DNA from: Marsupella aquatica
Taxonomy: Eukaryota > Plantae > Marchantiophyta
DNA: 64,000 nucleotides
Assembly (NCBI GenBank): GCA_973895155.1
Contig: OZ316893.1
Span: 1,550,860 to 1,614,859 of the forward strand
Direction of reading: 5' to 3'
Shown here piece after piece: positions 14,498 through 62,133 of this stretch. Both the position numbers and the translations under genes were made by a program. How positions within the stretch are numbered: the stretch's first letter is position 1; the number at the start of each line of letters is the position of its first letter. A model generated the notes under the pieces. It saw only the letters and a program-made list of their open reading frames with translations, was not told the DNA's origin and made no database searches.

Positions 14498-14719
14498 GAT
14501 GCTTGAATCGGTTGCTAGATCGATTGACAAGTTAAGCGAAGGCTACAGGGACGTATACCAAGTTCCTAGTTTCAATGCACAGAGGGAACCGAGAAATAGA
14601 GCAAATTAGACTAAGGAAAAGTTTTCCACGAGCAGCTGAGCTGAGAGAGAAGATCTTGAGTGTATGTTTTCCGCAATGAATGGAAGCACAGATGATGCGA
14701 GGCCGGGGTTCCGGGGGGC

Positions 14720-27364: not shown

Positions 27365-27537
27365 GAAGCAGAGCTACCAAAACCACCAATAAAAATACCT
27401 TCAATCACCAGGTGTAACCGAACACATCCACAGTACCAACCCTGCACGATAGTTTAACGATTAGGACTCGTGACATATTATATTCGCTGCGCAAGGGTAG
27501 GACTTGTTTATTTAAATATGTCCTTACAAGACGCGCC

Positions 27538-27888
27538 TCAATGAAAAGGTCGAAACACTCGTCGTGAAAGGTTCACCCAAGGGTCTTTGTTCCAAATCTT
27601 ACAACAGAAGTGAGCCTGTTTGTGGTACTTGTTGTCAAGACGACGACAACAATAGTTACAAGAAAACTCAAAAGAATGTAAACACGCCGTTAACATCAAC
27701 CTCGAACGAATTGGAACTCCTGCATCATTCATTCCGCAAAATTCAATGCGGAGAGGATTCTGCCTATCTCCAGGATCAGTACCACCCATCCACAATGCTC
27801 CTATACCGATGGGGAGAACTTTGAGTCGCACGAGTCTCTTGTACAACCGGCGTGCACGTTTGACACGATTTTCAAGGAAGATAGCCAT
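27538..27888 (-). CDS. Cargo ORF, 116 aa, basic with a Cys/His-rich C-terminus, unknown function
   Basis: ATG-initiated, CLH..SCNYCC...H..H.CC cluster, same strand as and upstream of the F-box-like ORF. A TATA-like CTATATAAAG lies at ~28481-28490 on the minus strand. Confidence 0.35.
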   Translation of the reverse strand: MAIFLENRVKRARRLYKRLVRLKVLPIGIGALWMGGTDPGDRQNPLRIEFCGMNDAGVPIRSRLMLTACLHSFEFSCNYCCRRLDNKYHKQAHFCCKIWNKDPWVNLSRRVFRPFH

Positions 27889-35918: not shown

Positions 35919-36917
35919 GTGGATCTTGAAGCACGAGGATCACCACGACGGTTTGAGGAGGAGAGAGAGGAGCAGGAGGAAGCGCATGTGACACCGGTAC
36001 AATCACCGGTGCAAGGAGTAGAGAGGATTGTGAAGGAAAAACAGATGGCATCTAGGTTCGGAGGTGTCAAGTTTGAGGTGGAGAAGTATGATGGGCGTAC
36101 GGACTACTTGCTCTGGGAGAAGCAAGTGAAAAGAGTTCTTCACGCTATGGGCCTAGATCATCTTCTCTCTACACGAGAGATGTACGATGATGAGGAGGAG
36201 ATTCCACTCAAAAGGTGGAGGCATGAACAAGTAATTGCAGTGAATACGGTGATGCTTTATTTGAAACCGCATATCATCAAGAAGTTGGATGACTACGCGG
36301 ATTGTGCATCTCTGTTCAAAGCCCTAAGGGAGAAGTACTATCGGGAGGATGCATCAGATCGATTGTACAAGAAGTCTCTCTTGATGAGCCTTAGGCTCAA
36401 AGAGGGGAACAAACTCCAGGATCACTTGGATGAATTTGATAGCCTAGTTGTTGATTTGTCTAATCTCGGTAAGGGCGTTGAAGAAGAGGACAAGGCCTTG
36501 CTTCTTCTCAACTCCTTACCCCCATCTTATCAGGGTTTGAAGCAGGTTCCCTTGTATAGAGACTTGAAGTCTATTTCATACTATGAGGTGGTAAGCTCTT
36601 TGCTGTCAGATGATGCACAGAAGAAGTTGGGTCAAGCCCAGACAGCATTGTCATCTGGTGATGCCTTGAATGTGAATCGTGGGAGATCACAACGGCGTCC
36701 CGAGCAGCGCACGAATGGCAAGGGACGAAGTAAATCTAGGACAAGATTTGCTTCAAGGGGGAAGTCCCAAGAGAGAAAGCCAGTAGTCTGCTGGAAGTGT
36801 CACAAGGTTGGTCACGTTAAGAGGGATTGTAAGGGTAAGGCAGTTGTATCTTCATCAGCCAATGTGGCTAGTGCTGATGGAGAAGTTGATTTACTCAATG
36901 ATGAGTATGTTTTATGA
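35919..36917 (+). CDS. gag: Copia Gag (likely ATG at 36045)
   Basis: KFEVEKYDG..DY.LW, LLLNSLPPSY, and zinc knuckle CWKCHKVGHVKRDC. Confidence 0.9.
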   Translation: MDLEARGSPRRFEEEREEQEEAHVTPVQSPVQGVERIVKEKQMASRFGGVKFEVEKYDGRTDYLLWEKQVKRVLHAMGLDHLLSTREMYDDEEEIPLKRWRHEQVIAVNTVMLYLKPHIIKKLDDYADCASLFKALREKYYREDASDRLYKKSLLMSLRLKEGNKLQDHLDEFDSLVVDLSNLGKGVEEEDKALLLLNSLPPSYQGLKQVPLYRDLKSISYYEVVSSLLSDDAQKKLGQAQTALSSGDALNVNRGRSQRRPEQRTNGKGRSKSRTRFASRGKSQERKPVVCWKCHKVGHVKRDCKGKAVVSSSANVASADGEVDLLNDEYVL

Positions 36918-39900
36918 AGTCAGGAGTATGCCCTGTGCACATCATCTAGAAGAGCAAATGATGTATGGATTCTTGATTGTGCTTGCTCCTTTCACATTTG
37001 TTACATTCGCGAGTATTTTAATTCTTATTCTGTGTCAAACGGTTCAGTTTTGATGGGAAATGATCACTCCTATCAAGTTGAGGGTATTGGGTCTGTAAAA
37101 ATTCAAATGTTTGATGGCATTGTGCGCATAGTGTCCGGAGTCAGGTTTGTACCTGGCATGCGTAAGAATTTGATTTCACTCGGTGTGTTGGATACAAATG
37201 GTAATCAATGGCGAGTAATGGATGGTGAACTTCAAGTCATATCGGGAGAGACAGTGATTTTGAAGGGGAGCAGACAGAAGAATTTGTATTGTTGCAGGGC
37301 AATACAGTATGTGGAGAGGCCAATGTAACCAAGTCTCACAAGGAAATGACTCAACTGGCCTCATTCACAATTGGGTGTACCTCGCAGGAACCACTTTTAG
37401 GACTCAAAAATATGTTTTTTAAGTGAAAAATGACTTTCGTAACATGGAAAAAGGTTCATCATGATTTTATCTCAAGACATTTAAGTCTAATTTTTTCACA
37501 AGACTATTTTACATGGTGTAACCTACCTCACCATGTAGATACATCAGGTTTTTAACTGTTTTAAGGGATCCTGTTATTGATGGCCCTAAATAAGCCAAAA
37601 TTACTGATGATTTTTGTCCTGTACATAAAGATTTAGTGTGTGTCACTATTTAAGTTTTGAAATATAAGATTATGCTATTAGTATGCATGCTTTGGTAAAA
37701 TTTCATTATCTAAAATGCATTTTTTAGAGTCCTTTTGAGTCCTAAAATGATGTGACCCATTGCGTGACAAGTCCTTTTATCAATCTTTGAAGGACATATA
37801 AGGAAACCTTCAAAGTCTCAAATGCTAGATAGTTTAATGAATGTTACCAACCTATAGGATGTTTATTAAGTGTAGTACATCAAATTTTCTATATCATCTC
37901 ATTACACCCTAAAAATGATATCCTAAAGCATAATAAACTATGGTCATTTTTGAGTGTGACGTTCCTTTTGGGTCCTCCAATTGTGAATGAGGCCAACTGT
38001 GGCATTCACGGCTAGGCCACATGAGTGAGAAGGGTTTGGCTATCTTGCGGAAGAATGGGCTCATTTCTGATTTGCAGTCTTGTAAATTGGAATTCTGTGA
38101 GCATTGTATTTTTGGAAAGCAGCATCGTCGTGCTTTCGGTGTTGAGCGGCTCTTGAGTACATACATAGTAACGTGTGGGGACCATCCCCGACTCCCTCAC
38201 ATTCTGGAAAATTGTACTATGTATCCTTCATTGACGATTACTCAAGATTTGTATGGATTTATTTCATGACGCATAAGTCTGATGTCTTGTCCATTTTTAC
38301 AAAGTGGAAGGCCCAAGTGGAGAATCAGACAGGAAACACGGTTAAGTGTTTGGATACCAGGGTGAAGAGTCTGAGGTCAGACAACGACGAGAAGTACACT
38401 TCAATAGAATTTGAAGAGTATTGTGTAAAACAAGGGATAACTCGTCATCTCACCATAGTTTATACTCCGCAACAGAATGGTGTCGCTAAGAGGCTCAATC
38501 GAACACAATTGGAGCGGTCACTGAGTATCTTGAGCCAATCAGGTTTACCACCAGAATTTTGGGCAGAAGCTGTCAATACTGTAGCTTATTTGGTAAATCT
38601 TTCTCCTTCTAGTGCAATCAATTTCAAAACACCGTTTGAAATGCGTTATAAACGGCAAGGAGACTATCATGGCTTGGTAGTTTTTGGAAGTGATGCATAT
38701 GCTCTCACACCAAAGCAGAATATGACCAAGTTGGATCCTACGTCCAAGAAATGTATTTTTCTTGGGTATCAGAGTGGTGTGAAGGCCTACAGGCTATGGG
38801 ATCCTATTGCCTGTAAGCTTGTTGTCAGTAGGGATATTTCCTTCAATGAATCCAGATTATTGAAGAAGGGGGAGAATACTCAGGTCTCCTGTACAGACAA
38901 AGGAAAATCTCATATCCCGGATCTCATTGAGGGGGAGATTGATCATGAAGTACATGATCGGAGAGAAGGAGGTGCTCCAAGCATGGAGCTGGTTCCTGTG
39001 CCAGAGGAACAAGAGGAGTTTGTTGATGCTGGTGAGCAGCAAGTGGATGTTGCTGAGCTTCAAATTGTACCAGTAGATGCAATTCAACCGGAGTCATCGA
39101 CTAGAAGAACATCTGGTCGCACTGGACGCGCTCCTCCTAGGTATGGACAGTGGGTTGATTCATCTCAACTGCAAGAGGACGATTTTGCAGTTGATGATGA
39201 GGGTGATGCGTTGGTTTTGGAAGAAGGGGAACCTTCTTCATTTCATGAGGCAATGCTTCTAAGGAGAAGCAGGAGTGGACTGCAGCAATGCAAACGGAGA
39301 TGCAGTCACTAAAGGACAACAAAACTTGGGAGCTTGTTAAGCTGCCTAAGGGTCAGCAAGTGGTGGACAGCAAGTGGATTTACAAGCTGAAGGATAATTC
39401 CGCAGGAGGTGGATCGAAGGTCTACAAGGCTAGGTTGGTAGCAAAGGGATTCACACAAGAGAAAGGTGTGGATTACAATGAGGTCTTCTCACCAGTTGCT
39501 AAGTACTCTACAATACGGCTATTGTGTGTGCTTGTTGTAATGTTTAGTCTACTGCTAGATCAGATGGATGTTGTCACAACTTTCCTCTATGGCACCTTGG
39601 AAGAGGTGATCTTCATGAGACAGCCGCTAGGTTTTGTGAAGAGATGACAGGAGGAATTAGTTTGCAGATTGCTAAAATCCTTGTATGGATTGAAGCAATC
39701 ACCAAGACAATGGAACAAGTGGTTTGACGATTGGATTTGGTCACAAGGTTTTCACAGGAGTGTGTTTGACCCTTGTGTATATTTGAAACCGGTGAAGAAT
39801 GTTGTCTTTGGGTTCATTGTTTTAGTACTTTATGTGGATGACATGCTTATTGCGGCCAAGGATAGGTGTGAGATTGTTAAGCTTAAGGCACTGCTAAGTG

Positions 39901-40805
39901 CAGAGTTTAAGATGAAGGACCTAGGGCCAGCTAAGAGGATTTTGGGTATGGAGATCACTAGGGACTTGGAGGCTGGTAAGCTATGGTTGACACAAAGCAG
40001 TTATGCGAGGAAGGTAATTGCTAGGTTCAACATGGGGGATAGTAAGCCAGTAAGTACCCCTTTGGCTGCACACTTCAAATTGTCATCGGCTTTTTGTCCT
40101 ACAGATGCGACAGAGAAGGGGCAGATGTCAAAGGTTCCTTATGATAAGGCAGTGGAAAGTCTCATGTATTTAATGACTTGCACTAGACCTGATCTTGCCA
40201 TGGCTATGGGTAAGGTGAGCAGGTACATGTCAAATCCAGGGAAGGTACACTGGGAAGTAGTGAAGTGGATTATCAGGTACTTGAAGGGTACCGTGGATCA
40301 TGGTCTTTTATTTGATGCAAATGCAAAGAATGCAAGATGCTATGTAGATTCTGACTATGGACAATATCTGGACCGAAGGAGATCAACAACAGGGTACGTG
40401 TTCACACTTGGCGATGGATGCATAAGTTGGAGGTCTATTTTGCAGAAGTGTATTGCTCAGTCTACTACAGAAGCGGAGTATGTTGCAACAGCGGAAGCAG
40501 TGAAGGAAACAATTTGGTTGGATAGACTTATCACTGAAATGGGATTGCCACAAGGGAATGTGAAGCTCCATTGTGATAGTCAAAGTGTGCTCCACCTTGC
40601 TGTGAACCAGGTGATGGACAGTAGAGTGAAGCACATAGACGTCAGGTACCATTTTATCAGGCAGGCTGTGTCTGATAATTTGTTTGAACTAGTCAAGATA
40701 AACGGTAAACTCAACCCAGCTGACGCATTTACCAAAGTGATTCATTCGGAAAGTTTCTCTAGACATCGTGATGTGCTGCAGGTTTTGCAATTGCGTCACA
40801 AGTAA
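36918..40805 (+). pseudogene. pol: Copia pol (protease, GAG-pre-integrase, integrase, RT, RNase H), disrupted
   Basis: WILDCACSFH, LWHSRLGHMS, FIDDYSR..LRSDN..TPQQNGVA, YKARLVAKGFTQ, LYVDDML, and STTEAEY..CDSQS..KHID. Several frameshifts and stops plus a MITE insertion. Confidence 0.93.
37357..37994. mobile_element. 638-bp MITE / non-autonomous TIR element in copia pol
   Basis: 18-bp TIR GGCCTCATTCACAATTGG / CCAATTGTGAATGAGGCC, 4-bp TSD AACT, AT-rich interior. Removing it restores MTQLWHSRLGH. Confidence 0.92.
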
Positions 40806-42230
40806 GGGTTTTTCTTAACATTCGTTGTAATTACTGATATATGTTCTTCTTCACTCCTAGTAATAGGCTACGGCTTAGTTCTGGTTTGCTCTAGTTAGAG
40901 AGGGGAAACCATGTTGGTTTTCGTCCAGAACTTCCCGCTGAGGAATCATATAGGTTAGCAGTATTACCCTCCCCTAGACCAGAGTCAAGGGGGAGATTGT
41001 TAGGTATTTACTCAAGGTCTAGGGTTACAGCATGTAACCGTAATTAGACTAACCGTAGTCGGAGACGTGGTTAGGTTAACTAGGATGCACACTATATGCC
41101 AAGCAGTGTTTGCTTGGATAAGTGGAACTTAGGCTCATTGTTACGGAGTCACTTGAGAGATGAGGAGAGCTTACACTGTGGAGACTTGGTTTAGCCGACG
41201 GGCTTAGAGTTCAGTAAAGCTCTCTTGTGTGTTCCCGTGAACGTAGCCTCGAGGAGGTGAACCACGTATCTCTTGTGTCAACTACTTGCGCGTTGGATGT
41301 GTCATGTGCTTATCGTTACGAGTGTCGTCTATGTTCAACAAGTATAGCCCCATCACAACATATTACATAGAACATGGATGTGCATACAAAAAACCTGTGC
41401 ACATGAAGGAGAATGATATATTATATATGACTATTAAAATGATGAGTTTTTTTTATCATTTCATTAATGTTCAAAGAATATGAATCGAAAATATATTTTG
41501 ATAATTCTTTTATTGTCCTCTTCCCTATTCATGTTCAAAGAACGGGTAGTCGGGGCTAGTTGGAAGTTCATTTCAAATTCCTGGGATGCATGTGGAGTTA
41601 CATCACACTATTGGTCACAAACAAGAACTGTGTTAAACAAAAAGCACCAAACAAGACTATGTGTATTTAAAACTAGTCAAAGAAAAAAAGTTTGACCTTG
41701 TAATTGTAAAAACAATTAAAATTGTAAAAATAACATTTCAAATAAACAAAGAAAAGGGTGAAAAGTGGGTGACAAAAAATAACCTTTGGATGGGTTGTGA
41801 TTGATATATCAATGTTTTCTAGTAGATTATAAATTTTATATTTAAGTAACAAAAAAAACTCTTCAACTACTATAACATTTACCAAGATAAGGTAAGAAAC
41901 TTTTCAGTTACTATGGAAAAAGGAACACCAAGGGGAGAACATAAGAAATCATTTGACTACTATGGATAAAGAATACCAAAGGAATGTAATGAATAAACAC
42001 TTTGGCTTAATATATAACATTTTGCATGGACTCTATGGTCATAGGAGTACCAAGGGAAGGTTGTGCATGCACTTATTCCATTAATAATCTACTAGTTTTT
42101 GTCTCTTATCTCCATATTAAAACCTATTCCAATATGTGACTCTTCATGTGTTCTAATTTAGTTGTTGAATACCATCAAACTTACAAAAACAAGAGTCCTC
42201 GAACTAATTGGGCTCCTTTGCTTTGGGACC

Positions 42231-44345: not shown

Positions 44346-45295
44346 CTATAGTACAATCTGTGACAATTGTCGAAGCGGCAAAAACGCCGAGGCAACACTG
44401 TCTACTGCAAGCTTCTCAGTGAAAGACTGAGGCTGACGGACCATCTCATCTATGATCAAAGCTGCAAATCCGATCATGGCCAGCCGACCATTCCATCGCT
44501 CAGCTCTGGCGTTGAATGGGCCCCAACCGCGTGCATCTGTGGATTCCCCATTGATGATCGGAACCACGGATGCGTAGGCGAAAATCTGCAACGCTACAAT
44601 GAAGAACGGGAGTCCCACCGCGCCTGGAGCAAAGAGCTGCTCCATCACAGTTAATCCAGACGCCTTCTCGGCCAGGAAGGCCCACGCGAATCCCAACATT
44701 GCCTGCATGTTCACAGCCATCACAATTTGAGGAAGACTGATTGAATTCTTCTCCAAAGGAATCGATTGACTGAGTACTACGAGAGAACAGAGTTCAGCTA
44801 TCCTGTGAAAATGTCAAATAGAGGACGCTATGCTCGGGCTGTCCAGGCCTCAACATTTCTAATGTGTCAATCATAGTGTCATATACGTACCAATCGCCCG
44901 TTGATGGTCTCGGGAGCGGCGCCATCGAATGCGAAAATGCTGCCCAGGCTTCTATCGCCAGTCTCGGGCCGCCTCTCGACTTCCGGGCGTGGGTAGAAGG
45001 AGCCGCTGCTGGGCACAGCTCCGAACACGGACTGCTTCTCAGACTGGTCTGTCTCCTGGTGACGGAGAATGTCCTCCTTGGTGATCTGCTTCTTGGTCAC
45101 CTTGTCCACGGCCTCACGCAATCCTGTGGGGCTCGAGCCATTCTCACTGGCTTGGCAGCGGAAGAGTGGCGCTCTCTTTGGCGCGACAGGCAACCTCACA
45201 ACTCCTCCCTTTAGTGCGTGGGCATTGCGGCCCAAAACTGTTGGAGCTGAGATCACTGCCATGGACGACTGCATGACTCCCACTGTTGCTGCCAT
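44346..45295 (-). CDS. ELIP: ELIP copy 4 (exons 44891-45295 and 44346-44702) with a late frameshift extending the C-terminus
   Basis: All three helices intact. A 1-bp loss at ~44432 replaces SPVFH* with PQSFTEKLAVDSVASAFLPLRQLSQIVL*. Confidence 0.85.
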
Positions 45296-46581
45296 GATGC
45301 TTGAATCGGTTGCTAGATCGATTGACAAGTTAAGCGAAGGCTACAGGGACGTATACCAAGTTCCTAGTTTCAATGCAGAGAGGGAACCGAGAAATAGAGC
45401 AAGTTAAAGTAAGGAAAAGTTTTGCACGAGCAGCTGAGCTGAGAGAGAAGAATTCTTGAGTGTATGTTTTCCGCAATGAATGGAAGCACAGATGATGCGA
45501 GACCGGTCTTCCGGGGGGCATTTATAGCAGCCGGTGGTGAATCTCGATCATCGATCAGAAGGTCCATGACATCAGTGGCAAATCATTTGGCAAGGACACC
45601 CGTCACTCAAAGAACATCTCCCAAGGGCTATTAATCTCGACCTTGTAATTTTTCCGGCTATCTCTCGATTTTTGATCGACAAGTCTTCGTCATGGATCTG
45701 AAACTACTCCTTGGATTAATTCTAACCAGGTGCGACAATTACAATAGAAGCCTTCTGCAAAGCATCTGGGGAGACATTCTGTGAGTTCTGTTCCCCATCT
45801 CCTTCTTCGAATAGCTGTCCTTCAATTTCCCAGGTGTCGCAAGAACGAACGAGATACGTTACCAAATGACGGACTAATATAATATAAAATGTTTGTGGCC
45901 GTTGAGGCAACTCCGATGAATCAATTTTCTGGAGAATTCAGGAGAGCAGATTGATGGTTTGGCGCTAAAGTTGCAATGATTTGGCATCATGTTCACTGAT
46001 CAGGTTCGAATCGAATTGAAAGCCACTGCTTAATTGCAGATTGTCCACCACCAGCCAGCTGTGTACGCGCATGAGTTGAGGCGCTTGACCGAAATCGGGC
46101 GTCGACTTGTTGGCAGAATTGTGTGCCATGTGTACAGCACGTAACGGGAGTTTGGAACACACTTGGCACAGTCTTCAGTTCAGTGATTTCGGTGGTGAGA
46201 AACTCGACACCCATGATTGTTGGTCTTGTTCGAACTTTGCTACCGACGAACGAAGGCTCGAATTCTTTCGCTCAGACTACATGAGCTCTGGATAACTGCA
46301 CACACTCCCGGGAAGAAGCCTCTTGTGTATAACTGGAGGGTTTGTACTAAGTGATAAGTACATACACTTGACATTTGCGTTTTTCACGAAAAAAATATTT
46401 TAATGTAATTTTTAATTAAGATGACAGTATTCCAACGATCTCCCCCTTCTGTTTCCTTCTCTTTGTTTCCTTCTCTTGAATGGGCGGCTTTGTCTTCTCC
46501 CCTTTTGGCGTTTTGCCTTTTGGCACTTTGATATATTTTAACAAATAACAAAGGTAGAGATGCCAACAGCTGCCGTAGCAC

Positions 46582-48672: not shown

Positions 48673-49645
48673 TCAGTGAAAGACTGGGGACTGACGAACC
48701 ATCTCATCTACGATCAAAGCCGCAAATCCAATCATGGCCAAACGACCGTTCCATCGCTCAGCTCTGGCGTTGAATGGGCCCCAGCTGCGTGCATCGGTGG
48801 ATTCCCCATTCATGATGGGAACCACGGATGCGTAGGCGAAGATCTGCACCATTGCAACGAAGAACGGGAGTCCGACCGCGCCGGGAGCGAAGAGCTGCTC
48901 CATCACAGTCAATCCAGACGCCTTCTCAGCCACGAAAGCCCACACGAATCCCAACATTGCCTGCAGGGTCACAGCCATCACATTTGAACACTGATTAGAT
49001 TTCTGTTCGAAAGGATTCAATAACCAATCTGAGTACAGCTCGTTGAGACAGTGGTAGCTCAGTCTGTGTGCGGACGGAACTGTCCTCTAACATTTCTTAT
49101 ATTAATTCGCCTGAAGTGCAGTTTCTAGAATTGCTTCCGTTGCTATCATTGAGCTATTATTACAAGTTCCGTTCCTGAAAATTCAAGATCATACTCACTG
49201 CAGCAACAACAAGCCAACTCTCGTGGTCTTATATACTTACCAATCGCCCGTTGATGGTCTCGGGAGCGGCGCCATCGAATGCGAAAATGCTGCCAAAGCT
49301 CCTGTCGCCGGTCTCGGGCCGCCTCTCGACTTCCGGGCGTGGGTAGAAGGAGCCGCTGCTGGGCACAGCTCCGAACACGGACTGTTTCTCAGACTGGTCT
49401 GTCTCCTGATGACGGAGAATTTCCTCCTTGGTGAGCGGCTTCTTGGTTACCTTGTCCACAGCCTCTCGCAATCCTGTGGGGCTCGGGCCATTCTCACTGG
49501 CTTGGCAGCGGAAGAGTGGCGCTCTCTTTGGCGCGACAGGCAATCTCACGACTGCTCCCCTCAGTGCGTGGGCGCTGCGGCCCAGAACTGCTGGAGCTGA
49601 GACCACTGCAATGGACGACTGCATGACTCCCACAGTTGATGCCAT
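48673..49645 (-). CDS. ELIP: ELIP copy 5, intact, 230 aa (exons 49241-49645 and 48673-48960); most divergent flanks
   Basis: Complete transit peptide plus three-helix LHC motifs, phase-0 GT..AG intron, TGA stop, TATA box retained. Confidence 0.94.
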
Positions 49646-51870
49646 GGTGCTTTCGGTTGTGATATCGATGTGAAGCTGAGAAGTAGGCTACAGGTATACC
49701 AAGTTTCTAGTGTCAAAGCAGACAGGGACGCGAAGGAATGAATGAAGATTGACCTGGAAACCTTTTAGAAAGATCTTCAGTGTATGCTTTCAACAGTGGA
49801 CGCTGCACGAATGATATGCAGAAGAGTTGTCCAGGGAATTTATAACTGCCGGAGTCAAGGAGTTGGGGCGGGGCCTGATCTCGAAAGGTCGATGTCGTTA
49901 GTGCTAAATAACCTTTTTGAAAGGCAGTGCATGCATGGACACCCGTCACTCAAAGAACATCACTACGGGGGGTAGCTACATGCACCTTCTAATTTTTCAG
50001 TCTCACTTACAGAAGTCTCGAGTTCCACCTCCTTTCAATTTCCACTTTCCCAGATCTCGAAAGACGGAATGAACGAGCTATCGTGAATGAGATATGGGTG
50101 AACGAGATTAAAGGCTAACATAAAATAAAGTTAAATTCTGATATTTGAAAGAACTCCGATGAATCCATTTTCTGCAAATTCACTAGACTTGTCGGGGGAT
50201 CAAATTGATGGTTGAGCGCTAAACCTGCAAAGAGTTTAGCATCATGATCAAGTTCGAATCAGATCGGAATCCGCTCGTTAATCCCTCAAACTCGACCACC
50301 AGCCAGCTGTGCACTGCGCATGTTGAGTTCAAGGCTGTGACCAAACTCTACCTGTTCAGGGTCGAGTTGTTGGCAGAGGTCAGTGACATGTGTACAGTGA
50401 CCAAACTCTACATGTTCTAGCACACTTGGCACCGTCTTCAGTTCAGTCAATTCGGTGGTGAGGAACTAGACAGCCATGATTGTGATCGATGGAGCAGTTT
50501 GGGCCATTGCGCCGAGAATCAAGCTCAGTGATTTCGGTGGTGAGGAACACGACAGCCATAATTGTGATCGATGGAGCGGCTTGGGCCTTTTGTGCCCAGA
50601 AACAAAATTAACTAATTAAGGCTATGCAGAGTTGCAGACCAGAGCACTACGTCGTAATAGGAGCAAACGCATAACGATTTTGTATGCATGTTTGCACGTG
50701 GTGTTCAACGGCATAGGCGACGTCGTCCGCGTATGCGCTCGACACCTTCGCGAGGAGGTCGTCAAGGACGTATGTTGCATGATTGTGCCTCGTACTTGCG
50801 CACAACAAAAGACTTTATGGGCCCTGATCATCAAAATGGGGTCGCCCAGATATCAAAATAGGGTTGCATATATAGGGGGATCCCGGGAACTGCACATCAA
50901 AATATGACTTGTGAACCTAACAAACAATTCACACCACCTATCATGATAGCAATTACTGAGGTTAAGAGGCAAATCTAAAGCCCAAATAAACTCAATATTC
51001 ACTAACAATGTTCACACCCGGAAGCTTAGTAAAGGGCAAATCTAAAGCACAAGTAAGTTCAATGTTCACAAAACAATTCACACCAAGGAGTGTTGTGCGC
51101 ATACATATCGCTACACAACATACATCGCTTGTCACATACATCCAGACATAGTCACACTGTCGCATCACAAATACAAGAGAATGGAATACAAGTGGAACTC
51201 ATGTCCACACATGTCCAAAACCCACAATAATCTCCATACAATCGGCACAACGATCTCGGTCAACAATACCCCATCGATCCCGCACCGATCCGATCACACA
51301 CGTATGTCAAGCCAACGCACCTTGCACTACTCAAGGAATCCACGTTACACAAGCGGAGCTCACAGCCACCATAGCCACACTCAAGCTCCTCTCTCTCCAA
51401 GGCTCAACATTGAAAGATGACCTTTCAATGCCTCACAAGTGAGAAGTACCCTCTCACACAAACCTGACAGAACCTTATCGGCTCCAATAGCACTCATACC
51501 AAACGTACATACTCTAATAGCACGATATACTACTACACTACTCAGAATGGTGTGACAGCTGTCGTGCGCATACATATCGCTACACAACATACATCGCTTG
51601 TCACATACATCCAGACATAGTCACACTGCCACATCACAAATACAAGAGAATGGAATACAAGTGGAACTCATGTCCACATATGTCCAAAACCCACAATCGC
51701 CCCCCTAGCTGGGAGTAAGGTCCCCTAACTCTAGCTAGCCATGAGTTCTACAAGGTTGATATACACCTTTTTAGGTGTGAAGATCAGGAGGCCGGGTGCA
51801 AGTGAGCCCCATCGATCACCTACCTGCAATCCATATCTGCCAAGAGAACACAAATGATAACTAGTCGGTT

Positions 51871-53451
51871 TCACCGACACTGAGGACACAACCATGATCC
51901 ACTAGGAATCACCTGCAATGGTGGTGTCAAACATGACATGTGCCATCCTCTAGAACACTTATCACAAATCAACATAGTAGCTGCTCCCTGAGCAGATCCA
52001 CACAACATACATTTCAAGCCAGCACGAACATGTGCCAAGCTTGGATCTACTGTACCATCAATGTTGGGAAGGTGACATGGTGCACAGTTGCGCACATGAT
52101 CCTTCCAAACCATACCATTGCGTCCCTCCAACATCAGGACACCAGAAGGCAACACTTCATGCACACGTAAGATTGTTCGGCCTGCGGTCACATCAAGTGT
52201 CGTGGGTGCTGTCTGCTGCAAATAAACATAATCACCAGGATGAAATCGTCGAATGCTTGCACGGTAACCTCCTCCACGAATAGTGGCATACCTCAAAGTA
52301 TCACGATGTTGGGCAATGGCAAGGTTGTCAAAAGCCATGGGCATCACTCTCTGAAATACCCGTGCTCTCTCTGAACACACCTTGACCCAAACATCAGGAT
52401 CATCCAAGTTCACAACTGGTGCAGCATGACGACGAATAGCTGCTGGCAAATCTGGCTCTCTACCATAGAGCAAAAAGTAGGGTGAGAAGGATGCAAGTGA
52501 TGCTTGCCGACTGAAACGGTAGCCCATAACTAACCAAGGTAGCTGGAGATCCCAATCTCCCAGATGACCAACCTGCAAGCCATACTTACGCAATCCTCTC
52601 TTCACAGTTTGCACAACTCTCTCAGCTAATCCATCTGCCTCAGGATGATCACGAGAGGTAGTGCGATGATCAATCAGAGCTTGTTCACACAAACTCTCAA
52701 ACTCTCCACGGAACTCAGTTCCCTGATCAGTCAACACCTCAGTTGGTGCTCCAAAATGACTGAGTACACGATCCAAAAATGTAGCAGCAACTCCTCCACT
52801 GGCTTTATCTGGCAACGCCACTAGCTCAATCCACTTGGAGAAGTGCTCCACCATGACCAAAACATACCGATTATGACGTTGGGTAAGAGGTAATGGACCA
52901 GCAAAATCCAAACTCCAACGATATCCCAAACCCATGATCGGTAACGGGTGCAACTGGGGAGTGGGAGCATTAAATGATGCTCTCACTCTGTCACATACCA
53001 CACACTTAGCTATCAACTGCTGGACATGAGTGTGCATACCACGCCACCAATACTGTGTCTGTAGCAAGCTGTAAGTGCGCTTCACACCAAAGTGACCCAA
53101 CTCCTCGTGCGCATGTCGCACCAAATGTACTCGTTGTGATGGTTTTGGTACCACCAACATCCTACCATCATGCAGTACTCTCAAAAGATGGTTTCCCTCC
53201 CATCGAAACCTCTTGGCTCTCTGTAGAACCCTGTCACGTTCCTTGGCATCAACACTGCCAACAATAGAACTATTGCGCAGATATTCCAACACTCTCACAT
53301 CATTGTGAATATCTTGCTGTCCAGAAGTTACTTCACCAACATCCACATCTGAAGACTCATCATCCACTCCATCCAATGAGGTAGAGTCCACAGATCCACT
53401 GTATGCTGGCACCCAACAAAGAAAGGCAGATGCATGCCATCCTGGCACCAT
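51871..53451 (-). CDS. Gypsy integrase (HHCC plus DDE core) with a C-terminal PHD finger
   Basis: AHEELGHFG..CVVC, WSLDFAGP, LTDQGTEF, HPEADGLAER; C-terminus CMLC..LICDKCSRGWHMSCLTPPL..IP.GSWLCPQC (C4HC3). Confidence 0.93.
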   Translation of the reverse strand: MVPGWHASAFLCWVPAYSGSVDSTSLDGVDDESSDVDVGEVTSGQQDIHNDVRVLEYLRNSSIVGSVDAKERDRVLQRAKRFRWEGNHLLRVLHDGRMLVVPKPSQRVHLVRHAHEELGHFGVKRTYSLLQTQYWWRGMHTHVQQLIAKCVVCDRVRASFNAPTPQLHPLPIMGLGYRWSLDFAGPLPLTQRHNRYVLVMVEHFSKWIELVALPDKASGGVAATFLDRVLSHFGAPTEVLTDQGTEFRGEFESLCEQALIDHRTTSRDHPEADGLAERVVQTVKRGLRKYGLQVGHLGDWDLQLPWLVMGYRFSRQASLASFSPYFLLYGREPDLPAAIRRHAAPVVNLDDPDVWVKVCSERARVFQRVMPMAFDNLAIAQHRDTLRYATIRGGGYRASIRRFHPGDYVYLQQTAPTTLDVTAGRTILRVHEVLPSGVLMLEGRNGMVWKDHVRNCAPCHLPNIDGTVDPSLAHVRAGLKCMLCGSAQGAATMLICDKCSRGWHMSCLTPPLQVIPSGSWLCPQCR

Positions 53452-53493
53452 CTCCCTATCTGACTCATCATGCCATCTGGCTCCAGTCTCATC

Positions 53494-54951
53494 CTACTGA
53501 CTGGTACATGGATTGCGGCTTAATCCATCTGCATCCAAGTTCACTTTTCCAGGCCTATGCACCACCTGGAAATCATACTCCTGTAACAACAATGCCCATC
53601 GTGCAAGCTTCCCTGTAAGCTTGTCAGACTCCATTAACCACTTAAGAGGCTGATGATCAGTGATCAAGGTGAAGGGGTTACCAAACAAGTAGCAACGAAA
53701 GTGTGAAACAGCCCATACTACTGCCAAACACTCTCCCTCATAAGAGCTATACTTAGCCTCTGCTGAATTGTTTGATCTACTGGCATAAGCCACAACAAAC
53801 TCATTCCCCTCATCATCCTTCTGAGTCAGCACTGCTCCAAGTCCTACTCCACTCCAATCAGTGTGTAGCTGAAATGGTCTGCCTGAAATGGGTCTTCTCA
53901 AAATAGGGGATGATGCCAACCTTTGCTTCAACTCCTGAAAGGCATGCTCCTGGTCATCACCCCAAATCCATTCCTGATCCAACTTAGTGAGTATGGTCAA
54001 AGGTTTAGCAAGCTGGCTAAATCCTTTAACATACCTCCTGTAGTAGCTCGCCAATCCCAAGAATGCACGAACTCTACTCACATCAGTAGGACAAGGAATC
54101 TGTGTAATGGCCTCCACTTTAGTCTGCTGTACACCCAATCCCCCTGGGTATATGGTGTGGCCCAAATACTCAATCTGGTCTTGGAAGAACTTACACTTGC
54201 TAGGATGGAGCTTCAACCCATGTGCTCTCAATCTCTCCAACATAGTCTGCAAGTGCTGCTGATGTTCTTCCACAGTAGAAGAATAGACCAAAATATCATC
54301 AATATAACATCTGACAAAATCCAAACCTGCAAGGATTCGATCCATGACTCTCTGGAACTCAGCTGGTGCATTCTTCAACCCAAATGGTAAGAATAACCAT
54401 TGATACAAACGATCTTTGCCATAAGAATCAATCCCCCACAATGCTGTCTTGGACCTGTCAGCATGCCTAATTGGAAGCTGATGGTATCCTGCCCTCAGAT
54501 CCAATGAACTGAAAACCTTTGCATGCCCCACAACATCAAAGATCTCCTCAGGTGTGGGCATGGCATATCGATCAGATTTTGTCTAGCGATTAATAGATCT
54601 GTAATCACCACACATGCGCCTATCTGTGTAATTGCCATGCACATCCTTCTTGGCTGGCATCACTGTGGCAGATGCATACTCCCCATATGAAATCTCCACC
54701 AATCCAGCCTCCAACAAATCTTGAGTTCTGCTTTGAATCAGAGCTCTCTCCATGTCACTATAACGGTATGGCCTACGAAAGATTGGCGCATCACTAGCCA
54801 ATTCAATCTGAATACCAGGGCCCTTCAATGTCCCCAAATCCTTCATGCTGAATGCAAAACAATTCCAATAACTCTTCAGGAATCGATGCATGCGACGTCT
54901 CTCCTCCCCTGTTAACTTAGGGCCAAGCTGTGGTTCCCAACTCTCCACCAA
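53494..54951 (-). pseudogene. Gypsy reverse transcriptase plus RNase H (in-frame TAGs at 54583 and 53494)
   Basis: RRMCGDYR, LDLRAGYHQ, PFGLKNAP, YIDDIL, LHTDWS, YEGECLA, TDHQPL, DADGLSR. Confidence 0.95.
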
Positions 54952-55038
54952 ATCCCTAATATCTCTTTGTAGGGTAGAAGAGATAGCCGATGATTGCTAT
55001 TTAGCAGTAGATTGAGCAGTCCCTTCCTGCTCAACAAT

Positions 55039-56140
55039 CTATCCAGCCGCCAATCCTGTCATAGGTCCATGGACTGTCTGCTCGCCCCCAGCTGTGGTCA
55101 ATACTGTCTCAGTGGACCGCAAGCTCACCAAGGGACAATCAGTAATTCCGGCAGAGCGCATCCGCAATTGTTCAGCTACTCCCAAGCTGATAATCCAAGT
55201 CAAACAATTCAAATCCATTGCTTGACCAAGAACCTGGCGCCGCAAACCCTCTGACACAGAGGCAACTGCAGTGGTGCCAGTCAAAAATCCCATAGCACGC
55301 TCTCTCTCATCAGCAGTAGGCTCCACTAACTGCTGGAGAGTTGTGTCCCATACAAGTTCAGGGCCACCTGCTCTGAATGCATATGAAGCAGAGTGGCTTA
55401 CAAGAGTGGGTAATGCACAACGTGGGCACCCAACTGCATTGACCATTGCCAATGGAGGTCTATTAGGTTGGGTCACACCCTGTGCACGACACCCTGGATC
55501 CAAAATATCATCCACCACTAAGGCTGGTGAGCGTGGAATGCTGTCAAATGCGCGCTTCAGCACCTCACATGGGATCAAATTAGTCCACCACAAGCGTGGA
55601 CGATGTGCACGAGAACCCACACGTGCAGCATCCAATAACACAGCAGGTCCAATCCAAGACCTCACCTGGTGAACACTAGCAACAATCCGACTACGATCAT
55701 CACCTAACAATGGCATATTCTCCAAAATGTATGCTGGAGACTATGTCTGATGTAGCTGGAGATGACGTAGCACCCGTAACATCTCCCAAAACAATGCAGA
55801 GCGTGGATCATGAAGTCCATGCCCAACGCCAGCTCTAGATTGGCCCTGACATGGCCAACCAGCAATCACCAAATCAATGGGGCCAACACGATGCAGATGA
55901 TCCGCCCCCAGCAATGAAATATCAGCAGGTAGTGCATGCTGATAACCACGAACAGCATCCACTGGCAGTAACTATGGATATCTATCCACCAACATAGCCA
56001 CATGTCGCAATGAGACCCTCCGTGTTGTCTCATCTATCTCCACATACAAATAACGACGCACAGGAATTCCTGCCTGAAGAACAGCAGCCAATCCAGTGCT
56101 AATCCCACCAAAAAGATCCAACAAACAAATACCCTCCGGT
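55039..56140 (-). pseudogene. C5-cytosine DNA methyltransferase domain (DNMT3-like) within gypsy pol
   Basis: Motifs in canonical order: I LLDLFGGIST, II VEID, IV DLVIAGWPCQGQS, VI ILENM, VIII AHRPRLWWTN, IX ERERAMGF, X RRQVLGQAM. Same frame as RT, broken only by TAGs at 55972 and 55741. Confidence 0.9.
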
Positions 56141-56689
56141 GGATACTGCCAAGCAATAGGAGTGGTATCCAATGGTGAAAGAGTCACAGGTCCATCTGCA
56201 AGAGACTGCTCTGCTCCTGACTGTGGTGTAAAAGCATGACGCCATGCATCATGTACCAATCGTGCTGCTGCCTGTGGCAAGGCCTGTGCAGTGCCCCACA
56301 CTGGTGGCACAACACTGCCAACAGGTAATCCTCGCATGATGTGCTCCTCATGAGACTCCTCCAATGGTGGAACATCGGCTGCATGCGCATTACCCTCAAT
56401 CAAATCATCCAGTCTAGCAATTACACCACTGAATGCTGCCAAAGACAATGGTGTGGATTTAGGGCCTCCCACAGGTCCACTAAATCTCACTGGCAATTTG
56501 CTCAATCGAGCATCTTCTGACTGCCAATCAGGTCTACATGACACTGATTCCTCCCAAAAATCAAGAATAAATCCCATGGGGTAGAGCACTGTACATCCCA
56601 CCAACACATCATATGACTCTACCTTAGTCAGAATAGCTCGCGCCTGTATCTGTGAGCTATCTGTGGTATGACCTTCCTGAATCCTCAAA

Positions 56690-58981
56690 TCAAGTGGTCT
56701 CCTGGTGATATGCTGTGTAGGTGTAGGTCCCCCCAATTGAAGTCTGAATGGGAAAGGGACAATCCTCCAAATCCTCTGGATGCAATCCCAATCCACGTAT
56801 GGCAGACTTCCCCAACATCAAGGGCTGAGCACCAGTATCCAGTAACACTCTCTCTGGCTGGTATACTGCTCCAGAAGGCCCAACTAATCGGAAGATACCA
56901 CTCCGATTATCCAATGACACAACACTAGGTTTAAACCTAGTCCTCTCAAATGCAGGGCGTGCTGGTAAATCCACCAACCTCGCTGCTGCTGCATGCCATG
57001 TCTCACTAGTAGCAGTAGGTGGCATGGTCTTCATTGCATCAACACTACAAGTTGCTTCTGCATGGGAAGCAACCACTGGAGTGTCCTCACAGAGTGTAGC
57101 TGCCAATCTGAACACTTCTGCAGGACCAACTCCCAAGTTCAGCATGTCTGTCGCTGAAAATAATGGGGTGCGTACTATGGCAGTAGCCGCCCCCAGCAAG
57201 GTACATGTCATCCCTGCTGCATCACTACCTGATTCTGCCAACTTACCCACATCAGGGTTTGTCCGAACCGGGTTCATAGAGGCAGTCTGAATTGTCTCTG
57301 ACAATGTAAAAGACTGAGGAAACTTTGTCTGCCGACGTGCATCCCCCCTTTGTGGATCTAACTCCACTACTGCTCCTCGGGGCTCAAGAGCTTTGGCTGC
57401 CCCACGTGTCAAAGCTGCTGATGCATCAATATGTGCAGTGCCACACATGAATCCCATGGTGGCAAGGTCTCCATCAGCTCCATAAGATGTGGAAGGACCA
57501 TGGGATGTGGAAGGTCCATAGGATGTAGATGCCCCATCACCAGAATTAGGTCTCACCTGGGAACTAGCCATGGCAGCTAGTTGTTGCTCCAATTGAGCAA
57601 TCTTAGCATCCTTTGGATCTATGGTTATAGCAGGGGCAGCGTCACCTCCCTGTCTCCCTGCATGTGGCATGCCATGACCACGTCCACCACCTCTACCTCC
57701 TCTTCCCTGATCATGTGTACGGGATCCTCCTCTCCGTAACTCAGGGTGGAGTGAGAAACACCTATCCTTGGTGTGTCCAGGAGCTCCACAATGATCACAC
57801 TGTCGCTGATCAGGCGCTGATGCTCCCCCTGATCCTCTATAATCTGGACAATATCTCTGTGCATGATCCCCACCACAGGTCCAACATCCTGACTGTTGTC
57901 CAGCATAAGAGGGCACAGGTCTCTGGCTGGTAGACTCTCGTGCAATAGGCTTCTCCCTCTGGCTCTTCTGTGCAGTAGGCTGTGGTGTGGATGTAGATGC
58001 AGCTTTTGGTGCTTCCTTGGCAAATCCGGAAGTCACCACCTTCTCATTCACCATATTGAGCTCAATGCGCTCAGAAAGGGTGAAAACAACTGCTAATGTG
58101 GGATCTGCATCCCTAAGCAGAGTGACATCTCTCACTCTGCGTCGCAATTCTCTGTCTAGAATTGCATACCAAAACTGGACTGCCTGAGCCTCTGTCACTC
58201 CCTTGGTGACAGTGATCAATCTGCGCATACGTGTGTATGCCTCACGTAGGCTCTCTCCAGTCTTGCGTTGGAACTCTTGAAGACCCTTCAACTTATCAGT
58301 TCTCACACCCTGATAGTTCTGCTTCAGTACCTCAAAGAATTCCACCACAGGATTAAATGTTGGCGCAACTCCAGTTCCTGTCACAATCACACCGGTAAGA
58401 GTAGTGGTGGATGCTGCTGGAGTGCTGCTGGTGGATGGTGTGCCACTCTGGCTAGTGCTGCTAGAAGAAGCAGCAGCTGTGGCAATGGGTTGGGCAGCCG
58501 CACTAGTGCCATAGGTGATGGACACGTAATTAGGCAACCAATGCTGCCTCCATGCCTCAATCTCAACCAAATGAGCCTTCCGAAACTCATGGTAGTCATC
58601 CATGGGTGGCCCCTCCAAATGCTGGAATAATCCCTTCCATGCCATGAAAGGGGTAAACAACGTGACGTTACGCAATGTCTGCATATCGCACCACGTATCA
58701 AACTCCTGGATGAAGTCATCCAGATCAATTGTGCCAACTGCACCAGAGTATCGTCGTGGGCCCTTTGTAGCCCCGTACATCTCGTCCATATCCCACAACA
58801 AAGGTGCAACCACCTGATGATGAGGAGAACTGGTCACTGAGTCCTCATCAGAATCACTGTTTGAAGCTGCACTGCTAACTGCTACCAATGCCGCTGGCCG
58901 AAACTGTGCCCCACTCCGAGTGAAACCGGTCCGTCGTCCATCGGGTAATCCAGCAACACCAGAAGAATCTGTGGTGACCAA
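56690..58981 (-). CDS. gag: Gypsy Gag (two CCHC knuckles) plus start of the aspartic protease
   Basis: FQRKTGESLREAY, CWTCGGDHAQRYC, CDHCGAPGHTKDRC, VLLDTGAQ. A frameshift near 56700 leads into the 55972-56796 frame. Confidence 0.9.
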   Translation of the reverse strand: MVTTDSSGVAGLPDGRRTGFTRSGAQFRPAALVAVSSAASNSDSDEDSVTSSPHHQVVAPLLWDMDEMYGATKGPRRYSGAVGTIDLDDFIQEFDTWCDMQTLRNVTLFTPFMAWKGLFQHLEGPPMDDYHEFRKAHLVEIEAWRQHWLPNYVSITYGTSAAAQPIATAAASSSSTSQSGTPSTSSTPAASTTTLTGVIVTGTGVAPTFNPVVEFFEVLKQNYQGVRTDKLKGLQEFQRKTGESLREAYTRMRRLITVTKGVTEAQAVQFWYAILDRELRRRVRDVTLLRDADPTLAVVFTLSERIELNMVNEKVVTSGFAKEAPKAASTSTPQPTAQKSQREKPIARESTSQRPVPSYAGQQSGCWTCGGDHAQRYCPDYRGSGGASAPDQRQCDHCGAPGHTKDRCFSLHPELRRGGSRTHDQGRGGRGGGRGHGMPHAGRQGGDAAPAITIDPKDAKIAQLEQQLAAMASSQVRPNSGDGASTSYGPSTSHGPSTSYGADGDLATMGFMCGTAHIDASAALTRGAAKALEPRGAVVELDPQRGDARRQTKFPQSFTLSETIQTASMNPVRTNPDVGKLAESGSDAAGMTCTLLGAATAIVRTPLFSATDMLNLGVGPAEVFRLAATLCEDTPVVASHAEATCSVDAMKTMPPTATSETWHAAAARLVDLPARPAFERTRFKPSVVSLDNRSGIFRLVGPSGAVYQPERVLLDTGAQPLMLGKSAIRGLGLHPEDLEDCPFPIQTSIGGTYTYTAYHQETT

Positions 58982-59939
58982 CCCTAACCTAATCTATGTG
59001 CTAACCCTAAGGGCAATCTATCCCTGTCAGCACCACAAGCACTCAGTGTTGGGCATCACTCCAACATCACCAAGAGAGAAATACATAGCACACTAGAATG
59101 TCTAGTTGCAAACCCGGATCACTCCTATGGAATCAAGCGCCCACATGAAACTAACATGGTGCATAAACAGGAAACATGTGTGAAGAGGATCCAGAAACAA
59201 GAATGGATACCATTCAACTCTCCACACAAAAGCAAATGCAAATCAATATGACAATGTGCATAAGGTTCAAGGAAGAGCCTTCATAATAGGCTTCACAATG
59301 GCACTCCAATGTTGTAGATGAGAACCAAGGCAAAATTGGTTCAATCTGTGAGTCTAGGTGGACTCAGAAGTATCAAAAACCCTAAAACAGCATCTGATTT
59401 GGCCTAGAATAGGCCTCTAAACAAATTGGGAAGTGTATAAAGCCCCCTGTCGCTTGAATCTAAACAACAAGTTGTCAAAGCTTGTGTGTACACAAGGTGG
59501 GATGAGAACTTGCCAGTTAAGCGCTCACGGCTGGGAATAGCCCTGGGATGGGTGACCTCCTCGCGCTCGACCTTGTGCCTCCCCTCGCGCTCACGGCCCG
59601 AAATAGCCCCGGGATGGGTGACCTCGACCTCGCGCCTGCCTGCGCTCGCGATGGGTGACTTCGCGCTCACGGTTGGGAGCACTTTCGGGATGGGTGACCT
59701 CGTGCGCCTCACACCTGACCCCAAAAATGACTACTTCCTTCACGAAAAGCTCCCGAAAACTGTCAATTTCCTTCATGAAAAACGCAGCCCTTCCACAGAA
59801 CTGGCAGCAGCTTGATTCAACACCTTTGACCCTCGTTTCTTTCACTGAAACGATGATACCGTCGCACGGGGCATTGGCAGCTCCGTTCCTTCAGGAAAAG
59901 AGCCGTCGCTTCACCTGCGCCTTGCCAACATCGTCCAAC

Positions 59940-60030
59940 AATAGCCGGCAATCAGATCTGAAGCCCCACAATAGCCGACAATCAGATCTGAAGCCTCATA
60001 GTAGCCGGCAATCGGATCTGAAGCCTCACG
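59940..60030. repeat. 30-bp tandem repeat x3 in the gypsy 5' leader
   Basis: ATAGCCG(G/A)CAATC(A/G)GATCTGAAGCC(C/T)CA repeated. Confidence 0.85.
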
Positions 60031-62133
60031 GATCGACTTCCACTGTCCAACATCTACTCAACATTCGCTTTCCTCCACGAATCATCAATCGACCTCCAAC
60101 TCAAAACCTGTCACCAATCACAGATCTGTACATCGATCGGGAAGCAAGCCGATCGGACAACAACGATACAGGTCAAGATACCAACGATCTGTTCGATAAC
60201 AACACACGATCCGAGCTACCACGAACCGTCGACAACTCAATCAATCGAACTTCTGTCCGCACAGTCCGTACAACAGATTTCGAATGTGATCTTTCAATGT
60301 AATCTCCATACAATCGGCACAACGATCTCGGTCAACAATACCCCATCGATCCCGCACCGATCCGATCACACACGTATGTCAAGCCAACGCACCTTGCACT
60401 ACTCAAGGAATCCACGTTACACAAGCGGAGCTCACAGCCACCATAGCCACACTCAAGCTCCTCTCTCTCCAAGGCTCAACATTGAACGATGACCTTTCAA
60501 TGCCTCACAAGTGAGAAGTACCCTCTCACACAAACCTGACAGAACCTTATCGGCTCCAATAGCACTCATACCAAACGTACATACTCTAATAGCACGATAT
60601 ACTACTACACTACTCAGAATGGTGTGACAGGAGGTTAAAGGGCCAATTCACAGGTAAGTTCAATTTTCACAAAATGGATAACAAATTTTTATAGGATTTC
60701 TTGAGATTCTAGAGCATTGATACTTTGCAAAATGACTATACTACTTCCAAAAATGTTGTTGCAAAAGCTTATTTTTTCTATGAAGCATTGCTCTTATTAT
60801 ACGATTGTAGTAAATTTTCTATTGTAAGTCAAAGTGAAATTTGAATTTGCATGAGCATTGTTGTGGAATATGATTTTTCAAAGACCATTACTTTCAAAGA
60901 AGGTTTTGACTAATTTTAATGCTACAATGTTACCTGAATTTATTCTTTTGGAGTATTGTTGATGTTGATGAATCTTAGTTTTCAAAGAGTTACAAAGAGA
61001 GCTTTGAGTAATTTTTCTGTTGCAGAGCTACCAGAAATTATATTCTAAGTCATATGACGTTGCTCTTGTTACAAGGAGTCAGTGCTTTGAGTACTTTGTT
61101 GTTGCGGAGCTATGGGAGATTTCTAATGTGGACCTTCAATGAATCCATTCCATTCACTGACATTCTCAATTTGATTTTAGGTGCTCATAATGTTCTTAGA
61201 GTGACGGAAACATAGGTAAACAATTAATAAGATAAATTTTCATCCATTTGCAGTTGGATTGTCTCATGATTAATAGGTGAAATATGGTCTGTCCCCTGTC
61301 ACTTCTTGGGGATAGTTGGAGACAACTTAGCATTCTATCCAGGCAGTAGTTTAGTGATCTATTACACCACAAGCCCTATGCCAATGCGTTGCACTGTGCA
61401 AGGAGGGCCGGTCCATAGGGAGTCGGGCTGGGGCATTTATGGGGCTAGGGTTGCACATTTCTTCCGGCAAGGGTCATGAAAAACAACTAATCAAATCCAA
61501 CGGCTTTGGATCTCCCGCCCAGGAGCTTTTTTGTATTGAGATGAAGAACAAAAAAAGCAGGATCCCTTATTTTTGTTGTAAATATATGTCACATTTGAAT
61601 TTGATGTGTAATTATTGGGATGCGAAACAATGTCCCCAAAGTCCTGTAAAGCCAAGAACCTTGGAGCGAGTTCCATTGCAGCGTTTATTAGGGAGTCTCA
61701 ATATTGTGACGGCCTGGGTTTTGGCCACCAGTGACAACTCCTTCACGGCCATGGGTAAACAAGGGATGGGCATCTACACAAGGTAGGGTAGTCCACACCA
61801 GCTGCCCGCCGGTGTAGTCCTGTGATTGTCACTTTGTAGTCTATGTTGGCATGGGTGTTGAGGCTGTCCGTCAAACATCAAACACATGTCTCTCAAAAAA
61901 ATGTGCCCAGAATATTTATTAGGGTCCCTTTTATAGGCACTCCTACATGTCTGTCAAGTACGTCATCCACAGTATTGAGACCCCTATAAGTACGGCACAA
62001 GGGTGGAGGCATAATTATGCATACAGTCATCTCTCTGTAAGTGCAAAATACATAAGTGCAGAGCCAGTATAATTGCAAGGTGTCCCATTCTTTTCCAGAC
62101 TCTTTCCTCACAATCTTGCACTTTTTGTAAGTG

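Follow-up and report, generated by a model that had tools for sequence, protein, structure and literature searches.

The window analysed here, a 64,000-nucleotide stretch of the liverwort Marsupella aquatica (assembly GCA_973895155.1, contig OZ316893.1, positions 1,550,860 to 1,614,859), contains on its minus strand a decayed copy of a clade of Ty3/gypsy-type retrotransposons. Insertions of this clade begin and end at a conserved short palindrome inside the long terminal repeat (LTR), and the split-repeat layout of the window copy is a real, clade-wide property rather than a one-off.

Read along the minus strand, the element runs from the flank and CTCC through B', the internal region, a polypurine tract, AT, A', GC, B, AT and A into CTCC and the second flank. 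The left terminal repeat B' (60298..60629, 332 bp, TG..CA) starts with TGTCAC and would contain the start of the RNA together with R, U5 and the downstream portion of U3. The polypurine tract (51698..51706; A, six G, CG) and the AT after it lead into A' (51560..51695, 136 bp, TG..CA), the upstream part of the reverse-transcribed LTR, which a GC spacer (51559-51558) separates from B (51228..51557), the second copy. At this A'/B joint lies the perfect palindrome GACAGCTGTC (51554..51563), two attachment-like ends placed head to head around the GC spacer, and its occurrence at 51554 is the only one in the window. The right terminal repeat A (51091..51226) ends in CA. The B/A joint (51226..51229) has lost the terminal bases of B', has kept the AT that follows the polypurine tract, and resembles an end-joined LTR-LTR junction.

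Comparison of the flanks identified a target site duplication, GGAG, at 60630..60633 on the 5' side of the element and at 51087..51090 on the 3' side. Both flanks are members of one 67-bp repeat family, as expected for a single insertion site. B' and B differ at one of 330 positions and A' and A at 4 of 136. A preliminary description of the window had given this order of repeats, the duplication, the palindrome and the trimmed B/A joint, and coordinates and repeat comparison bore out every detail. The layout was taken from the assembled sequence; its support comes from contigs of other samples, aligned to two stretches inside the element.

Split repeats in related loci

With an alignment of 36 integrases we retrieved 80 metagenome loci, the best 80 of 478, from 17 of the 64 parts of the collection, and mapped A and B in them from three references. 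Since the loci were found through their integrase, solo B-A copies fall outside the sample. Duplicates were dropped (L002/L011, L023/L024, L033/L034, L036/L044, L053/L055 and L003/L009), and the 24 of 80 rows that gave no A, having too little downstream DNA or belonging to other lineages, stand outside the counts of forms. The integrase was followed by A'-B-A in 28 distinct loci (one cut in A, one internally deleted) and by A' and then flank in 22 (three with damaged ends), and one locus was cut inside B. All 31 rows with a complete B after A' continued into A, never into flank.

Both ends were present in 16 distinct loci with integrases about 46-76% identical. Nine of these have the long form seen in the window and seven a short form, B'-internal-A'. 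Ordinary paired LTRs occurred in none of the 16, and no A preceded B' in the 58 to 3391 upstream bases available. Exact 4-bp duplications flank five of the nine long and five of the seven short forms (10 of 16; chance about 0.005 each), and three more long forms have a 4-bp duplication with one mismatch, while no duplication was present at the flanks of L032, L019 and L054. The termini of other copies, which the preliminary description had left to decide between a system and a single accident, are thus split family-wide. The locus L091 is a young long form in which A' and A are identical. Another locus, L045, was considered as a short form and rejected, being a deleted long form. With these data a true short form, recombination between A' and A, and assembly collapse cannot be told apart.

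In L063 and L077 the terminal A stops one 15-bp subterminal unit before the end of A', at an upstream CACRACA, reflecting either an alternative cut or later slippage. A single-protein query of viral contigs gave no match; an alignment query gave nine distant loci, 27-36% identical, and the palindrome was absent from L081, the sole viral-contig locus inspected.

Element ends in contigs of other samples

Contigs of five public runs from three studies were aligned to the window stretches 51200-52400 and 51430-51600; all counts below are among the ends listed, and ordinary ends may occur among the rest. Over the first stretch, the contigs leaving exactly at the end of A numbered 43, 21, 40 and 45 in four runs. 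Beyond this end the consensus agreement was as low as 0.36-0.39 (median length 145-255), which points to many unrelated flanks. At the start of A, 27 and 7 contigs departed in two runs, with a consensus that begins like the end of B. Over the second stretch, for which the third study was included, 50, 44, 51 and 11 contigs departed at the end of A. Fewer had a free end where B begins: five in the run X14, one of which continues for 7.7 kb, and one long contig each in X15 and X16. A large number of contigs break off precisely at 51557, and some retain the palindrome next to a diverged B.

These ends bear on whether the window merely records a one-off aberrant integration of an ordinary element, or a misassembly. 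The window's own insertion site is known from the assembly alone, which leaves some room for such an explanation. However, contigs of other samples repeat the same ends and joint, as do 28 distinct long-form loci from other lineages, and L091 has the layout with identical A' and A. For the family as a whole this explanation is contradicted, and we give it next to no credence.

The palindrome in divergent lineages

The ends TGTCATG and CACGACA, or transition variants of them, recur in lineages with integrases about 70% and about 50% identical to that of the window. The B repeats of these lineages do not align with the window B, yet the palindrome is kept. Among 17 more distant loci, seven have the palindrome core at a distance of 59-164 nt past a G run (a result reached by 12-57 shuffles in 1000 for each locus); a variant of the palindrome is present in L004, and six of the misses have fewer than 800 bases downstream.

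The A'/B spacer was scored in 34 loci, with a pattern fixed at two bases that offers no test of spacer length; the mapped coordinates show a 2-base gap. The spacer is GC in 11 loci and AC, GT or AT in 20 more. It stands in CHG context and decays as if methylated, and the variants are those that deamination of methylated CHG cytosines would be expected to produce at the centre of the palindrome.

Priming and the reverse-transcribed LTR

A polypurine (G-rich) tract stands immediately 5' of A' in all lineages. In the window, the predicted primer-binding site at the end of B' (60289..60300) is complementary to a predicted self-primer within B' (60479..60490), and the TGG of a tRNA 3'-end primer site is not present after B'. 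The self-primer carries the sole difference between B' and B (60487): the match is 12 nt with the intact site in B (51418-51407) and 8 nt with the mutated B'. Among 17 copies, seven show a perfect match of 10-17 nt between the sequence following B' and the self-primer site within B (p ≤ 0.005 by shuffling). This complementarity was found in four lineages with differing paired sequences, including a two-sided change between L004 and L090, and the self-priming helix forms in folds of RNA from the predicted start in the five best cases. Such complementarity would be the signature of Tf1-type self-priming, a known mechanism (PMC7175516). We also observed a short hairpin (9 bp in the window) of which the predicted self-primer forms the 3' arm and a repeat of the primer-binding site the 5' arm (window 51408-51430; also L009, L004 and L090). 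In an RNA that begins 5' of the loop, the primer would thus be masked.

With the polypurine tract before A' and the primer site after B', the reverse-transcribed LTR is supported as A-GC-B, in agreement with the preliminary description; the same two positions led us to reject B-A as the true LTR. The sequence divergence within and between elements points the same way. A' and A (16 copies) and B' and B (7 copies) are closer within an element than across elements, also for transversions alone and for the halves adjacent to the joint (p at most 0.0008), which agrees with a single template for both LTRs of an element. Because the copies are old, A' has its own A as nearest neighbour in only 4 of 16. 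Deamination at first seemed strand-biased between A' and A in two columns, but this bias was rejected: the overall counts were 71 and 75 for C>T and 62 and 85 for G>A.

A proposed route through circular DNA

We regard it as reasonably probable that the element is copied by ordinary reverse transcription, joined end to end into a 2-LTR circle and cleaved by its integrase at the palindrome; the circle and the cleavage are steps proposed from sequence. The RNA would start within B' and prime itself, in the manner of Tf1, on the site just past B'. Strand transfers of the ordinary kind, an established pathway presumed to apply here, and the polypurine tract would then yield a linear complementary DNA (cDNA), A-GC-B...A-GC-B. 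The ends of this molecule would not be used for integration and would be joined instead, giving a variable B/A joint. The DDE integrase would next open the palindrome of the upstream LTR, cutting each strand after CA, and insert the product with a 4-bp stagger. A cut after CA in CA-GC-TG leaves 2-nt 5' overhangs, the same as 3' processing of LTR ends, and a cut at the palindrome with strand transfer would yield both the loss of GC and the 4-bp duplication. One-LTR circles, cuts at both palindromes or later recombination between A' and A would produce the short form, a would-be dead end since it has no repeat at its 3' end. 2-LTR circles themselves are usually regarded as a dead end.

A precedent for the cleavage step is found in retroviruses. 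The integrases of foamy virus and human immunodeficiency virus type 1 (HIV-1) are reported to cut the palindromic, head-to-head LTR-LTR junction after CA on both strands, with loss of the spacer (PMC1180852, PMC4372172). In these accounts the palindrome is made by joining of the cDNA ends, the cut restores the ordinary linear form, and the route is disputed or a back-up. In the window clade, by contrast, the palindrome is encoded within the LTR, and its use would account for the permuted provirus found in each copy for which both ends are available.

In 23 third-lineage copies the B/A joint keeps 0 to 3 of the bases following B', adds one or loses bases, and joint class changes 11 times on the tree of these copies, compared with 11.7 times after shuffling, with the nearest neighbour in the same class in 6 of 23. 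The variability of the junction, which the preliminary description had proposed to score, is therefore found in this lineage, whereas the joint has the same length in all five second-lineage copies. Taken together, these comparisons lean towards a joint that is made anew in each cycle. Imperfect end-joined 2-LTR junctions are reported to occur in plant circles (PMC5338827).

Several observations weigh against the circle route or against parts of it. A double-stranded 2-LTR circle has two identical palindromes, so that a mirror form, B-A-GC-B'-internal-A', is expected; it was found in 0 loci, compared with nine long forms (about 0.002 if cutting were unbiased). The uniform length of the second-lineage joints is a further point, and so is the finding that 10 of the 23 third-lineage joints are identical and that one joint class clusters weakly on the tree (14 of 500 shuffles), a tree without a well-supported branch. 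The self-primer match falls to 6-9 nt in 10 of 17 copies, and the self-priming helix does not form in the fold of the mutated B' of the window. Left ends were far fewer than right ends in the public runs. Contigs of L004 and L090 run from A through the palindrome and B directly into internal sequence; L090, a closed loop that shares its bin with L091, is probably a collapse of the assembly, and both loci can still be read as ordinary or tandem copies. Finally, retroviral integration from circles has been reported to be inefficient or absent (work cited in PMC1180852).

The claim in the preliminary description that a circularised cDNA was cut at the palindrome is accordingly upheld in part: the ends lie at the palindrome and the GC is lost, but a freely opened circle would have left the mirror form as well. 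Either something favours the upstream site, be it the state of the strands, the loading of protein or methylation (the spacer being in CHG context), or the circle is not the symmetric molecule assumed, if the intermediate is a circle at all. The second option can be worded as joining of one strand, or as a head-to-tail pair of cDNAs, with the same ends and again a new B/A joint. In the one-strand variant, the 3' end of the plus strand would be ligated to, or jump onto, the left end, and the last-made minus strand would stop at the upstream palindrome, which would always be the one opened because the integrase would need to cut only where a strand is available. Such a strand-biased or dimeric intermediate accounts for zero mirror forms beside nine long and seven short forms and fits all data behind the circle route. 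Its strand-specific steps are hypothetical, and we hold it to be an unlikely explanation, if a serious one.

A joint that is inherited rather than remade would instead suggest copying in the manner of PAT and Ngaro, in which the RNA would read across the B/A joint as far as the last A, both ends would be rebuilt on the internal A'-GC-B as template, and a DDE integrase would have replaced the tyrosine recombinase. The topology is the same as the split direct repeats A1-internal-B1-A2-B2 described for such elements (PMC8969392, PMC4157794), and the lack of mirror forms, the uniform joint of one lineage (all 5 copies), the single joint shared by 10 of 23 in another and the weak clustering of one class all fit. 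Yet the positions of the polypurine tract, directly in front of A', and of the primer site, directly behind B', indicate an ordinary LTR route, the joint-side halves of A and B follow the A' and B' of their own element, joint classes are overall independent of the tree, and joints keep 0 to 3 bases from beyond B' or lose bases. On these grounds we consider inherited joints improbable.

Returning to the circle route, we lean, if only slightly, towards a wider reading of it. In an old clade that spans green algae, charophytes and bryophytes, the attachment sites of the integrase would have moved from the ends of the cDNA to a palindrome inside the LTR, and the circle would have become an obligatory substrate. 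A DDE element would in this way have converged on the split-repeat life cycle of tyrosine-recombinase elements while depending on end joining for its replication.

Coding content

The element encodes a gag-protease frame followed by a pol frame with in-frame stops, in the order protease, reverse transcriptase, RNase H and integrase, all on the minus strand. The gag-like frame (56690..58993) ends with the start of the protease (Asp_protease_2, weak and below the cut-off). A C5 cytosine methyltransferase domain with in-frame stops (55200..56135; PF00145, E 1.7e-9 with stops read as X) sits between protease and reverse transcriptase, a position that is the same in related lineages, and C5 methyltransferase motifs are also visible in the window pol. 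Reverse transcriptase and RNase H, identified by profile match, are broken by stops (53494..54996); the reverse transcriptase is of the gypsy type, and its closest solved structure is that of Ty3 (E 3e-68). An open 540-aa frame (51871..53493) holds the integrase, with H2C2 and DDE core, and a C-terminal PHD finger. The DDE integrase named in the preliminary description is confirmed by a match to PF00665 and the catalytic spacing D-59-D-34-E. A tyrosine recombinase gave no match in 20 frames (6 + 14), which take in the element's open frames of at least 100 aa, and a domain scan gave no chromodomain match after the window integrase, where the PHD finger is found instead.

Relatives of the integrase-PHD protein carry the names of Calypogeia, Marchantia, Riccia, Sphagnum, Klebsormidium and Haematococcus. 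Marchantia polymorpha proteins are 65-82% identical to those of the element, and an integrase-PHD protein of Klebsormidium nitens is 51-52% identical to that of the window; no K. nitens name occurred among 63 longer methyltransferase matches. Gene models of M. polymorpha (P0123-P0133 and others) have a methyltransferase domain 60-67% identical to that of the element and are likely copies of this retrotransposon annotated as genes. In L027 and L066 the methyltransferase has a different place, following RNase H and preceding the integrase instead of separating protease from reverse transcriptase, and L066 keeps the palindrome 112 nt past a G run. The loci L090-L095 are relatives of the plant and algal element in contigs filed under bacterial or archaeal genome bins, probably through eukaryotic contamination.

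Relation to known elements

With Ty3/gypsy elements (Metaviridae) the window element shares the order of pol domains, the DDE integrase, the polypurine tract, the TG..CA ends and the 4-bp duplication; unlike them, it has no terminal pair of full LTRs, and its attachment ends lie inside the LTR. The predicted primer site, complementary to LTR-internal sequence, would be shared with the self-priming Tf1/sushi and Tcn1 groups (PMC7175516, PMC6317226, as far as described there). In contrast to the Tf1/sushi-Tcn1 chromoviruses, a PHD finger replaces the chromodomain and a methyltransferase is present in Pol. The repeat topology is that reported for PAT, TOC1, Kangaroo and Ngaro (PMC4157794, PMC8969392). 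As the preliminary description had stated for PAT, Ngaro and TOC1, these elements differ by their recombinase and by lacking duplications: they are described as encoding a tyrosine recombinase, whereas the window element has a DDE integrase and 4-bp duplications. To judge from its sequence, the element appears Ty3/gypsy-like up to the cDNA and PAT/Ngaro-like in its repeats.

The nearest published element is KnitGypsy-Dnmt3 of Klebsormidium nitens (de Mendoza et al. 2018, PMC5890265), for which the legend of Fig. 4c gives a DIRS-like repeat structure with Gypsy domains. Compared by description only, it resembles the window element in combining a cytosine methyltransferase in the Gypsy Pol with DIRS-type repeats, and the account, in the parts consulted, is without ends, duplication, palindrome, priming, short form, mechanism or land-plant copies. 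Open-licence papers and preprints likewise yielded no account of the ends, the duplication, the palindrome, the short form, the priming, the route or land-plant copies. A preprint (10.64898/2026.05.21.726589) names Gypsy-DNMT3, with no discussion of the repeats in the part consulted, and the paper on Troyka (PMC12440569) proved unrelated in the part consulted. To judge from this literature, the ends, the proposed mechanism and the land-plant copies appear to be new, and the layout was already known, stated without explanation in one figure legend.

Implications

Whether 2-LTR circles can be true precursors of integration has been debated for retroviruses since the 1980s (PMC1180852). The scar predicted by the circle route is borne by every copy of the clade observed with both ends, and the question can thereby be tested in nature, on elements that have relatives in Marchantia polymorpha. 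Tools that search for pairs of full LTRs, which no copy possesses, would miss the clade or misplace its boundaries; a survey described in PMC6317226 relied on a tool needing paired LTRs. Dating based on LTRs and counts of solo LTRs would be wrong for this clade. With this finding, Gypsy elements that carry a methyltransferase, so far described from one alga, are extended to land plants.

Other features of the window

Outside the element, the window holds several similar copies, dispersed along it, of a gene of the chlorophyll a/b-binding family (6431-7012, 14081-14542, 44346-45340, 49115-49687 and further partial copies; PF00504 in one piece), which may be ELIP. A broken CACTA-type transposase (PF02992, DUF4218, DUF4216) lies at 25173-31487. 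At 35904-40805 there is a broken Copia element with gag, integrase and RVT_2, possibly bounded by the repeat 32386-32582 / 41145-41341. On the minus strand, a 588-aa frame (15459-17225) that had no Pfam match above the cut-off presumably resembles the C-terminal part of ORF2 of a long interspersed nuclear element (LINE).

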